A stretch of DNA of 63,418 nt, the filler included, from Reclinomonas americana ATCC 50394 (lineage: Eukaryota), in NCBI GenBank assembly GCA_048213135.1. It is 7 parts of 3 records of this genome, joined end to end, with 100 filler letters (N's around TTAATTAATTAA, not from the genome) between each part and the next. Parts side by side here need not be neighbours in the genome. Positions count along the whole stretch, not along the records: positions 38,984 to 44,745 come from PS015708.1; 6 more parts are not named here. One strand, written 5' to 3'. Shown piece by piece: positions 43,025 to 44,701 of the stretch; positions within the stretch are counted from its first letter, which is position 1, and each line of letters starts with the position of its first letter. The notes below the pieces were generated by a model, which was given only the letters and a program-made list of their open reading frames with translations, was not told where the DNA came from and ran no database searches. Made by a program: the position numbers and the translations under genes.

Positions 43025-44701
43025 TTAGGCGCTGTTGCAGCAGCCGCACTGCGTGTGTGTGGACAAGAAAGTGTGAGTGAGCAGCAACAGGCTTGGCGAC
43101 GAGATGGCTTGTCACGCACCCCGCCGCAAGTGCTCCAGTACTGCGACACAGATAAACGAGTGAGTGGGAGGAGAGGACGACGGATAAACAAAAACACAAG
43201 AAGGCAAACCTTCCATGTGTTGCCCTGTGAGCGACGAGGAGAAGGATGATGGAGAGAGTGAGTACACGGCTGATGTGAGATGGAGCGCGATGATGAGCAG
43301 CTGTACGTACACCCCACTGGAACACCTGTGAAGGAGGGAGAGGGGGTCAGAAACTGGGCGAATGAGAAAGAACAGGAAACACCATGCTGACCTTGATGGC
43401 GCAAGCGCGGTTCGTGGCTGGTGGGAGAGGGAAGGGAGGGATGGTGAGTTGCAACAAATGGGAGACAGCGAACGAGCGAGATGAAGCAGCGAAAATGGCG
43501 AATGTCGTGACAGGACGAGCAAAGCGAAGGGAGACAAGATCCAGTGACGAGGCCCAAGACGAGAGACACCAAACAAGCGAGGCAAGACTCGAGACGAACG
43601 AGAGATGCCATGACAATGAGGAGAGGCAAGAGACGAGCGAGAGGAGCCAAAGGGAGGGCGAGGATGGTACACAACAACGAGGAGAGGCAAGAACAACCGA
43701 GGAGAGCCAACAGATGGGTGAGGATGACACATGACGAGTCGGAGAGGCATAAATCGAGCGATATGAGAGGTGAGACACAAGAAGAGAGACGAATAATACA
43801 TAAGACAAGCGAGGAGAGACAGGGATATCGAGGTGCACGATACCGCGCGAGGAGCGGGAAGAGACGGGGCTCAGGCGCATGAGGAGAAGCAAAGCTCGGA
43901 GGGCGGAAACTCACCGACATCGCACGGCGCATTGCCACCGCTGCAGTACGGCCAGTTGCTCTGGTTGATCTGCCACAGCTGTGTAGACGGAGATGTTGAG
44001 TTGCAGGACGGCAGCGAAAAAAAACATGCATCGTGATGAGACGCAACGCCAACGTCGAGAGTGCCTGCAAACAGAAACACAAAGAGATGAGAAGCCGCGA
44101 TGGAACAGTGGTGAGGGAGAGAAGGGGGAGGGAGGGAGAAGGAACGACAAGAGAGCGATAGATGAAACCACTAATGAGTGGCTCAAGGAAGGAATAAGGT
44201 GGAGGAGGAGGAGCAGGAGCAGAGAAGGGAGGGATTGCGAAAGTGTCGACAAATGCGGTGTTTGCATCATATAAAGATGAGCGCAGTGGAGTGAGCGGTT
44301 GGAAGCGAGGTCAAGCAACGGAGAGGTAAGCCAAAAGGAGCGAGCGAGTAAACAACTGAGAGGGAGTGTGTAGTTGCGCGTTTGCATTTGCACGCAGTGG
44401 AACGTTGCATTGTGGATTTTCTGTGGTCATGTGTGTGTGCGTGTGTGTGCGTGTGTGTGTGAGTGCATGTGTGAGTGTGTGTGAGCTGCATGTGTGCATG
44501 CACTGCGCTTTCCAATGCGACTGCATGCAGAGACACACAAGAGGTCCATAAGAAGACAGCATGCACAAACCATTGGTGTTGCTGTTGCAGTTGTGCGCAT
44601 CACTGATCACACATCGGAGAAAACGCAGTCAGTGCACACACGAAGCAAGACAGCAATGCGAAGTAAGCAACGTACCCGCCAGACTCGTGAGAGGCAATGC
44701 A
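43025..44701 (-). CDS. Secreted c-type-lysozyme-like protein, copy A, nine micro-exons (exon 1 in gap)
   Basis: Exons 44701-44676, 44602-44571, 44064-44048, 43978-43915, 43417-43392, 43325-43311, 43224-43210, 43140-43120 and 43048-43025 splice in phase to CIASHESGGDAHNCNSNTNGTLDVGLWQINQSNWPYCSGGNAPCDVATNRACAIKVFQWGGNTWKYWSTCGGCGCCNSA*. Confidence 0.9.

Follow-up and report, generated by a model that had tools for sequence, protein, structure and literature searches.

Introduction

GH22 lysozymes are already on record from phagotrophic protists. MAST-4 flagellates are reported to express them at a high level, and those of Goniomonas avonlea to carry signal peptides (PMC8237690, PMC6260743). 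For the C-type lysozymes (LyC) of Dictyostelium, a growth defect of the lyC2 knockout on one Klebsiella strain has been reported. The gene reported here, called gene A, can be likened by description to all three as a lysozyme of the same class. Since such enzymes from protists have been published, it adds one member to a known class, and the statement of an initial annotation of this DNA that GH22 is mostly characterised in animals overstated the novelty. The animal c-type lysozymes, for example those of Bombyx mori (1gd6) and hen egg white, have the ...QIN..W and CA.K motifs in common with the protist family to which the gene A product is assigned below, but share only 21-34% identity with it. 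Compared with the animal enzymes, the protist family lacks about 13 residues between the beta-sheet region and the CA.K helix, and its Cys-rich ends are additional.

For the gene structure, the comparison is with the micro-exon genes (MEGs) of Schistosoma. These are described as coding for secreted proteins by series of very short exons; the exons are symmetric, the introns are long (up to 5 kb) and the proteins are lineage-specific and disordered (PMC10526429).

In this study, a stretch of 63,418 nucleotides from Reclinomonas americana ATCC 50394 (called the window) was analysed. Its parts are separated by six artificial joints, each of the form 44 N + TTAATTAATTAA + 44 N. From the evidence presented below, gene A is very probably a genuine nuclear gene, rich in introns, from a microbial eukaryote, and its sequence suggests a small enzyme with many Cys residues that belongs to the lysozyme superfamily and has GH22 enzymes as the closest solved relatives. 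What is noteworthy about gene A is how finely it is chopped by introns; the protein itself is ordinary.

Exon model and spliced alignment

Gene A consists of nine exons on the minus strand (43025-44701). Table 1 lists them together with the neighbouring features and the parts of a second gene, gene B. Each of the nine exons is preceded by a CAG acceptor, exons 1-8 are followed by a GT donor, and exon 9 ends with TAA. The exon lengths add up to 240 nt, that is, 79 codons and a stop, with no internal stop, and the stop falls at the same aligned residue as the end of the closest homologue ORFs. The exon sizes, GT..AG ends and matching phase given in the initial annotation were thus confirmed to the exact coordinate. 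Its observation that no listed ORF captures the gene also holds, as the stop-to-stop ORF list contains gene A only in fragments; for example, 43871-44170(-) comprises exons 3 and 4 and reads through the intron that separates them.

Table 1. Features of gene A, gene B and the adjoining scaffold joint, in window coordinates.
Feature	Position	Strand	Length (nt)	Description
Gene B, counterpart of exon 4	40470-40533	-	64	
Gene B, counterpart of exon 3	40600-40616	-	17	
Gene B, exon 1	42242-42418	-	177	ATG, signal-peptide-like N-terminus, Cys-rich N-terminal part of the domain
Gene A, exon 9	43025-43048	-	24	Cys-rich C-terminus, TAA stop
Gene A, span with eight introns	43049-44675	-	73, 506, 69, 497, 66, 86, 69, 71	Intron lengths
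Gene A, exon 8	43120-43140	-	21	Phase 0-0
Gene A, exon 7	43210-43224	-	15	Phase 0-0
Gene A, exon 6	43311-43325	-	15	Phase 0-0
Gene A, exon 5	43392-43417	-	26	C-A-I-K helix start
Gene A, exon 4	43915-43978	-	64	LWQIN...W...C motif (protein P0001)
Gene A, exon 3	44048-44064	-	17	T-L-D-V-G, second putative catalytic acid (Asp)
Gene A, exon 2	44571-44602	-	32	Phase 2 in, phase 1 out
Gene A, exon 1	44676-44701	-	26	C-I-A-S-H-E-S-G-G, putative catalytic Glu (HES motif)
3' end of intron preceding exon 1	44702-44745	-		Cut by scaffold end; 5' exon(s) missing
Artificial scaffold joint	44746-44845	.		44 N + TTAATTAATTAA + 44 N

The exon chain was evaluated with a custom gapless spliced aligner, which accepts GT..AG introns from 40 nt upward at a penalty of 10 per intron and scores residues with BLOSUM62. 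The only query was the ORF of L099, an independent homologue from a metagenome. This alignment, blind to the earlier model, returned the same eight introns with a score of 277. Applied to 56 tiles of the same length from other parts of the window, with both strands included, the procedure gave a maximum score of 72 (mean 47.4, sd 9.5); 200 shuffles reached at most 48 (mean 33.2), and the plus strand of the gene A region scored 51. Therefore, the exon chain of gene A lies far above chance expectation. The splicing proposed for it is based on homology and on the conservation between genes A and B. An alternative 17-nt exon near 44520 was dropped, as the homologue-guided alignment chose 44048-44064.

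A spliced scan of the whole window recovered genes A and B only, with the other tiles scoring 57 or less. The end of the neighbouring scaffold (44846-46100) was examined as a candidate third paralogue and rejected because its spliced scores were only 31-51. The window also contains an ADP/ATP-carrier gene, whose homologue search reached 79% identity at best. The introns placed in it by the gapless aligner were inconsistent across three queries, and no exon sizes were derived for it.

Searches with unspliced pieces of the locus brought no useful result. Pfam assigned no family to two ORF pieces, and the word-indexed homologue search with a 99-aa ORF gave no candidate with three words in common. 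The sole return of a PDB sequence search with an unspliced fragment was an unrelated adenosylhomocysteinase (E 1.1), and no usable match to a 21-residue exon was obtained from the ESM Atlas. Rfam (at gathering thresholds) and ARAGORN detected no RNA feature across the window. No sequencing run, including RNA runs, was matched in a search with a 1846-nt stretch.

Homologue family and fold

Residues 1-79 of the product align without a gap, at 70.9% identity, with L099 and L026, two uninterrupted metagenome ORFs of 141 aa, in which the aligned part is residues 63-141. In a comparison with a large protein collection, 36 of the 40 compared proteins showed 62-72% identity over at least 70 aligned residues. 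The homologues are collinear with the product and consist of proteins of about 130 aa from protist transcriptomes and environmental contigs. Among the 5.8 billion clusters of the collection, no protein of 72-230 aa was found to exceed 72% identity with the product, which fits gene A being unannotated. The only named member is ANDGO_01547 of Andalucia godoyi, a 'Ctype lysozyme/alpha-lactalbumin superfamily protein'. In the literature searched, no activity was described for any member of this family.

Against a local HMM of 56 homologues the product scored 129 bits. It keeps all 10 invariant columns and 14 of the 16 whose conservation reaches 90%; at the other two of these near-invariant columns it has Asp in place of Asn and Asn in place of Ala. 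The family motifs HES, D.GLWQIN..NW, CA.K and W..C, as well as the C-terminal Cys cluster, are all found in the product. It contains nine Cys, some of which align with lysozyme Cys in the PDB profile alignments. A hydrophobic N-terminus is present in gene B exon 1 and in all 30 full-length homologue ORFs listed. Many members have a longer N-terminal CGGNCP..CP.C motif, of which gene B has a short form. Judged by these sequence features, the homologues form a Cys-rich, signal-peptide-bearing group of protist proteins, and the product belongs to this lysozyme-like family.

Which enzyme class the family resembles most was examined by Pfam and by fold. Both tests were run on the homologues, and the spliced product was scored against the local family HMM alone. 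The initial annotation had proposed an HMM search against GH22 and SLT models, and the outcome was divided: at E<=0.001, SLT_3 matched 56 of the 56 homologues and SLT matched 51, while Lys matched only 21. The cut-off for SLT_3 and Lys was 27 bits. SLT_3 (PF18896) exceeded it in four of the five homologues shown singly, whereas among the same five Lys (PF00062) matched L090 alone, with 23.7 bits, which is below the cut-off; most Lys matches in the family likewise stay under it. The SLT_3 scores of the closest homologues were 32.8 bits for L099 (131-aa protein) and 34.4 bits for the identical L026 ORF. Higher SLT_3 scores were obtained for bacterial-looking metagenome proteins with D.GLWQIN, such as L001 with 55 bits. 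A literature search for SLT_3/PF18896 gave nothing relevant among the matches listed.

From the Pfam ranking, one could read the same gene and protein as a lytic transglycosylase, i.e. a GH23/SLT-like enzyme that is non-hydrolytic and forms 1,6-anhydroMurNAc. Lytic transglycosylases, RpfB and EtgA also appear in the fold search, with Z-scores of 7.2-7.6 in VIA-align 2 against the AlphaFold2 model of L099 (pLDDT 87.4; 71% identical to the product); RpfB, EtgA, MltE and Slt70 reach 7.3-7.6, and EtgA, MltE and Slt70 by themselves 7.3-7.4. In the same comparison, however, the Bombyx lysozyme 1gd6 is 4 units higher, with a Z-score of 11.9 and an rmsd of 1.7 A over 92 residues, and alpha-lactalbumin has a Z-score of 9.5, so the SLT_3/SLT (PF01464) domains are structurally farther from the model than c-type lysozyme. 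All 50 Foldseek matches listed for the model are lysozyme entries, with moderate TM-scores (0.45-0.58). When PDB sequences were searched with the family profile, the best 60 matches, down to an E-value of 2e-9, were all lysozyme C.

The catalytic residues lead to the same side. In the profile alignment with PDB sequences, the family's HES Glu and D.G (LDVG) Asp coincide with the Glu and Asp in the c-type lysozyme motifs HES and DYG, at the positions of Glu35 and Asp52. Both acids are present in the spliced product. The Glu column of exon 1 is invariant across the 56 homologues, and the Asp column is at least 90% conserved. Lytic transglycosylases are known to need the Glu alone, and the Cys framework together with the conserved Asp fits GH22 better than SLT_3/SLT. 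The transglycosylase reading is thus unlikely, and the nearest solved relatives of the family, by profile and by modelled fold, are the c-type (GH22) lysozymes. The alignment with both catalytic acids that had been claimed for the product is borne out by these results, and the structure prediction that had been suggested as a check gave, for the homologue L099, a c-type lysozyme fold. The pattern C-x3-C-x2-[LMF]-x3-[DEN]-[LI]-x5-C, which we take to be the c-type lysozyme signature, occurs neither in the product nor in any of the 56 homologues; this region is shortened in the family.

Missing 5' end and tandem paralogue

The initial annotation described the nine exons as the gene. The exons are real, but they are not the whole gene, because exon 1 has a CAG acceptor upstream and is therefore an internal exon, and the scaffold breaks off at 44745, after just 44 nt of intron-like sequence. 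The 5' exon is placed beyond this end. It was not found elsewhere within the window, and the model has no start codon or signal peptide for gene A. What we describe is the 3' three quarters of a real nuclear gene, which code for the C-terminal two thirds of the enzyme.

Gene B lies downstream of gene A in tandem. Its first exon ends in phase 0, is followed by a GTGAGT donor, and matches the N-termini of L088 and P0009, so that the N-terminal part of the protist family, signal peptide included, has its counterpart here. The Cys-rich W.Q.CC segment that follows the signal peptide in the family is present in this exon as well. Two further exons correspond to exons 3 and 4 of gene A, and the others are inside the N gaps 41269-41925 and 39778-40340. 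Between the two genes, the 17-nt exon is identical at 16 of 17 nt and the 64-nt exon at 54 of 64 nt, with several of the differences being synonymous. Intron 3, on the other hand, is identical at only 35 of 69 positions, and the flanking intron sequences at 23 of 46 and 16 of 35, with the splice sites conserved. The exon structure is thus common to genes A and B, with exons conserved and introns not, and this indicates purifying selection.

These observations bear on whether gene A might be an unexpressed or decaying duplicate, with the functional gene located elsewhere. The missing 5' exon and the two changed near-invariant columns could be taken as signs of decay. The loss at the 5' side, however, coincides with the scaffold end and so reflects an assembly limit and not a lesion. 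There is no stop or frameshift in 240 nt over nine exons, the splice-site dinucleotides are canonical in 17 of 17 cases, the invariant residues are all retained, and the contrast between exon and intron conservation relative to gene B points to purifying selection. A pseudogene is accordingly quite improbable, somewhat more so than a transglycosylase.

Proposed function

As a functional gene of the GH22-like type, gene A would act as follows. After removal of the signal peptide, which is suggested by gene B and the homologues, the protein may enter a secretory or phagolysosomal route, and the mature form would cleave the MurNAc-beta-1,4-GlcNAc bond of peptidoglycan. In hen lysozyme, Glu35 is the general acid and Asp52 the nucleophile or stabiliser; by analogy, the Glu of HES would serve as the general acid and the Asp of LDVG as the nucleophile or stabiliser. 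The likely role would be the digestion of bacterial prey or defence. Secretion, muramidase activity and a link to bacterivory are what we infer for the gene A product from such analogies.

A non-catalytic role in the manner of alpha-lactalbumin, for example in binding peptidoglycan or other glycans or in regulation, has in its favour that alpha-lactalbumin is the second-best fold match and that the family lacks the stretch of about 13 residues of the animal enzymes. Both catalytic acids and the motifs around them are nevertheless conserved family-wide, which makes this role very improbable. Micro-exons offer many degrees of freedom and the chain was first assembled by eye, but that it is a chance construct of freely picked GT..AG pieces is hardly credible, as the same freedom gave far lower scores in the tiles and shuffles, natural ORFs align with the chain over its full length without a gap, stop position included, and two of the exons recur in gene B together with their splice sites.

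Intron density and architecture

The eight introns of gene A interrupt a coding sequence of 240 nt, which corresponds to a density of about 33 introns per kb. Over the same 79-residue region, 44 of 59 metagenome loci of the family are intronless, 13 contain a single intron and 2 contain two; these counts are biased because the scan misses any locus whose D.GLWQIN motif is interrupted by an intron.

Compared with the Schistosoma MEGs, gene A has symmetric exons only in exons 6-8 (phase 0-0), and six of its eight introns are short (66-86 nt); it therefore falls outside the MEG definition. Its product is also a conserved globular enzyme, in contrast to the disordered MEG proteins. A wider reading would be that the lysozyme-like genes here are a distinct protist micro-exon class, with an architecture older than the tandem duplication and kept by purifying selection, and that the exons of 15, 15 and 21 nt might be skipped to give variant secreted proteins, or else that the locus records an unusual burst of intron gain. 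We regard this as unlikely.

The case illustrates how a conserved enzyme gene that is cut into exons of 15-64 nt can escape ORF-based, and probably standard, gene prediction, and how homologue-guided spliced alignment recovers such a micro-exon gene. As to the protein, gene A provides one more lysozyme of the phagotroph type in a family that is widespread among protists. The eight introns in 240 nt, in an architecture common to gene B, may be of use for research on intron gain and micro-exon splicing.

An introner-like origin was considered for the introns and rejected, as they are not copies of each other; the search for copies elsewhere in the window gave microsatellite matches only. The introns are 61-75% pyrimidine with 48-56% GC; for the coding sequence, the corresponding values are 47% and 61%. 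A (TG)n microsatellite is located in intron 2, and a tandem repeat of 60 nt in intron 4.

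Gene model

Direct reading of the minus strand and extraction of the pieces by script gave the identical set of nine exons for gene A, the lysozyme-like gene, with the sizes and GT..AG ends that the initial annotation had described. CAG precedes all nine exons, GT follows exons 1-8, and exon 9 terminates with TAA. Together the exons amount to 240 nt, or 79 codons and a stop, with phases of 2, 1, 0, 1, 0, 0, 0 and 0 after successive exons; from the sequence we infer that they are spliced. The stop-to-stop ORF list contains only fragments of gene A.

Micro-exons leave the reader much freedom, and so a gapless protein-to-DNA aligner was written as a test. 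Introns must be GT..AG and 40 nt or longer but may fall in any phase, and each one lowers the score by 10 BLOSUM62 units. The aligner's only inputs were the protein of L099 (a metagenome locus with a 141-aa ORF) and the minus-strand sequence of 43000-44745. From these it recovered all eight introns of gene A (73, 506, 69, 497, 66, 86, 69 and 71 nt) with a score of 277, while the controls reached at most 72 in 56 other window tiles on both strands (mean 47.4, sd 9.5), at most 48 in 200 shuffles of the gene A region, and 51 on the plus strand of that region. The exon chain is confirmed and chance is excluded.

Coordinates of gene A, its tandem paralogue gene B and the intron repeats
Feature	Position	Strand	Remarks
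Gene A exon 1	44676-44701	-	26 nt
Gene A exon 2	44571-44602	-	32 nt
Gene A exon 3	44048-44064	-	17 nt
Gene A exon 4	43915-43978	-	64 nt
Gene A exon 5	43392-43417	-	26 nt
Gene A exon 6	43311-43325	-	15 nt
Gene A exon 7	43210-43224	-	15 nt
Gene A exon 8	43120-43140	-	21 nt
Gene A exon 9	43025-43048	-	24 nt, TAA at end
Gene A intron 2 microsatellite	44430-44502		(TG)n-like; further matches in the arrays 37247-37328 and 37657-37740
Gene A intron 4 repeat	43613-43726		60-nt unit, tandem, 1.9 copies
Gene B exon 1	42242-42418	-	177 nt, ATG at 42418, phase 0 end, GTGAGT donor
Gene B 17-nt exon	40600-40616	-	equivalent of gene A exon 3
Gene B 64-nt exon	40470-40533	-	equivalent of gene A exon 4

Separate scaffolds make up the window, linked by six artificial joints (at 10049, 16791, 20835, 38928, 44790 and 51230), each of the form 44 N + TTAATTAATTAA + 44 N, and neighbourhood across these joints is therefore meaningless; several longer N gaps occur besides. 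The scaffold of gene A extends over 38984-44745 and is interrupted by two stretches of N, 39778-40340 and 41269-41925. With the gaps left aside, GC content is about 55-60%, and neither Rfam families nor tRNAs were found in the window.

Tandem paralogue and the missing 5' end

Gene B begins about 600 nt downstream of gene A on the same strand. Its first exon codes for a hydrophobic start that resembles a signal peptide and then for a Cys-rich N-terminal segment, which in the homologues stands just before the HES motif (the catalytic Glu). The gene resumes past the gap at 41269-41925, where a 66-nt intron separates its 17- and 64-nt exons; the remaining exons fall inside N gaps. Genes A and B are identical at 16/17 nt in exon 3 and 54/64 nt in exon 4, several of the differences being synonymous, as against 35/69 in intron 3 and 23/46 and 16/35 in the flanking intron sequence. 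Conservation ends at the splice sites, as expected for coding exons under purifying selection, and the introns next to exons 3 and 4, at least, are older than the duplication.

Exon 1 of gene A opens at an acceptor, with 44 nt of intron-like sequence before the scaffold ends, and the first exon of gene B has no counterpart elsewhere in the window. Ten exons at the minimum are thus expected for the complete gene. Beyond A and B, the window has no other copy.

Intron density

With eight introns in 240 nt, gene A has about 33 introns per kb of coding sequence, and 7 of its 9 exons are no longer than 26 nt. Over the same 79-residue region, 44 of the 59 family loci among the matches listed from the metagenome scan have no intron, 13 have one and 2 have two (one of these probably an insertion), counts that are biased low since a locus whose motif is interrupted by an intron escapes the scan pattern. 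No intron of gene A is a copy of another. Their pyrimidine content is 61-75% and their GC content 48-56%, compared with 47% and 61% in the exons.

The genome is not uniformly micro-exonic, because ORFs elsewhere in the window run without interruption for 782 and 1176 codons, and the window also contains the 3' part of an ADP/ATP-carrier gene (20893-21568(+), truncated where its scaffold begins). In that gene an exon of about 140 codons shares 70-79% identity with carriers of many eukaryotes, and at least one short intron lies upstream of it. The nearest named analogy to gene A is the micro-exon genes of schistosomes, which, as described, differ from it in how symmetric the exons are, how long the introns are and what kind of product is encoded. 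It is this architecture that makes gene A of moderate interest.

Homologues

The fragments of gene A were too short for Pfam, word-indexed protein search, PDB sequence search and the ESM Atlas, and metagenome contigs were therefore scanned with the degenerate pattern D-x-G-L-W-Q-I-N-x-x-x-W, giving at least 124 loci. Translation around the matches separated bacterial-looking lysozyme-like proteins from a family of Cys-rich ORFs of about 130 aa, which resembles the spliced product. Residues 1-79 of the product align without gap to residues 63-141 of the ORFs of L099 and L026 at 70.9% identity, stopping at the same residue, and at least 50 ORFs at the motif loci match at E ≤ 1e-20. Against a collection of 5.8 billion protein clusters, the L099 protein matched 39 of 40 candidates at E ≤ 1e-5; their sources include the EukProt and MMETSP transcriptomes, and one is named (ANDGO_01547, Andalucia godoyi, 'Ctype lysozyme/alpha-lactalbumin superfamily protein'). 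For 36 of the 40, identity to the product is 62-72% across 70 or more residues, with no closer match among them; thus no same-species protein is on record in the 72-230-aa range.

The bacterial-looking group (L001, L005, L018 and about 40 others) shares the D.GLWQIN motif in the context A.SIAEDGSG.P ... GLWQIN ... W.AWSTY, and gives stronger SLT_3 matches than the protist family (55 bits for L001). Some metagenome homologues occur as tandem pairs (L048/L049, L078/L079, also L077), L105 has two domains within a single ORF, and some carry long extensions, N-terminal in L060 and L020 and C-terminal in L013.

Family, fold and function

Pfam was run at E ≤ 0.001 on all 56 members of A1, an alignment of the Cys-rich homologues, while the fold tools were applied to L099 and the product was compared with the local A1 HMM only. 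In this comparison with GH22 and SLT models, SLT_3 (PF18896, 'Lysozyme like domain') was matched by 56/56 members, SLT (PF01464) by 51/56 and Lys (PF00062, c-type lysozyme/alpha-lactalbumin) by 21/56. Four of the five homologues shown singly passed the SLT_3 cut-off, and one (L090) matched Lys, at 23.7 bits, below the 27-bit cut-off. None of the papers listed in the literature search mentions PF18896.

Comparison with solved structures points more clearly to GH22 than Pfam does. The best 60 PDB sequences for the A1 profile are all lysozyme C (Bombyx 1gd6 at E 2.1e-9, followed by those of echidna, mouse, human and hen between about 1e-8 and 1e-7), and HES and D.G of the family align to HES and DYG of the lysozymes, in agreement with the c-type core and both catalytic acids seen initially. 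Modelled by AlphaFold2 on the A1 alignment, the L099 protein reaches a mean pLDDT of 87.4 and a pTM of 0.76, with the domain from residue 30 onward above 93. All 50 Foldseek matches listed from the PDB are c-type lysozymes or complexes with one, headed by housefly digestive lysozyme (2fbd, E 1.3e-4, 32% identity), with TM-scores of 0.45-0.58 in 49 of them (exception 1lmn, 0.40/0.41, rmsd 12 A). A Foldseek-independent search likewise placed a c-type lysozyme first for L099, the homologue 71% identical to the product (Bombyx, Z 11.9, 92 residues superposed at rmsd 1.7 A; alpha-lactalbumin, Z 9.5), with RpfB, EtgA, MltE and Slt70 lower at Z 7.3-7.6. Lytic-transglycosylase chemistry, the main rival and the one that the SLT matches would suit, is on this ranking unlikely.

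A c-type signature pattern is absent from the product and from 56/56 homologues, and the family lacks about 13 residues in that region; the product is therefore filed as a putative divergent relative of GH22 within the lysozyme superfamily, not as a typical member. It scores 129 bits against the A1 HMM and keeps 10/10 invariant and 14/16 near-invariant columns, Glu and Asp included; the two changes (Asn to Asp, Ala to Asn) lie in the loop after HES. A decaying copy, which these changes would suit, is in view of the kept columns an improbable reading of gene A, less likely than transglycosylase chemistry, and a non-catalytic role for a product with both acids is very unlikely.

The reading of gene A as a lysozyme-like gene is supported, with these caveats. 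In hen lysozyme, Glu serves as general acid and Asp as nucleophile or stabiliser. By analogy, the product would be a secreted or phagolysosomal muramidase, in which its Glu and Asp may play the same parts. Bacterivory is a guess from the distribution of the family.

The notion of GH22 as mostly an animal matter is outdated, since protist members are already in print, and the protein type of gene A is thus already known. GH22 is annotated in MAST-4 flagellates, in which it ranks with GH24 among the glycoside hydrolases of highest expression (PMC8237690), and in Goniomonas avonlea, with signal peptides (PMC6260743); both are, by annotation, of the same enzyme class as the predicted product of gene A. 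Dictyostelium has C-type lysozyme genes, and its lyC2 knockout grows poorly on one Klebsiella strain (PMC5890168).

Other features of the window

Three long ORFs on two scaffolds, 46089-47141(-), 49164-50450(-) and 52236-53345(-), have nearly the same N-terminal text and look by eye like a repeated glycosyltransferase-like gene. The very long uninterrupted ORFs at 2558-8338(+) and 9236-11774(+), of up to 1176 codons, contain repeated Thr/Ser/Val-rich units that resemble tandem Ig/FN3-like surface-protein repeats.
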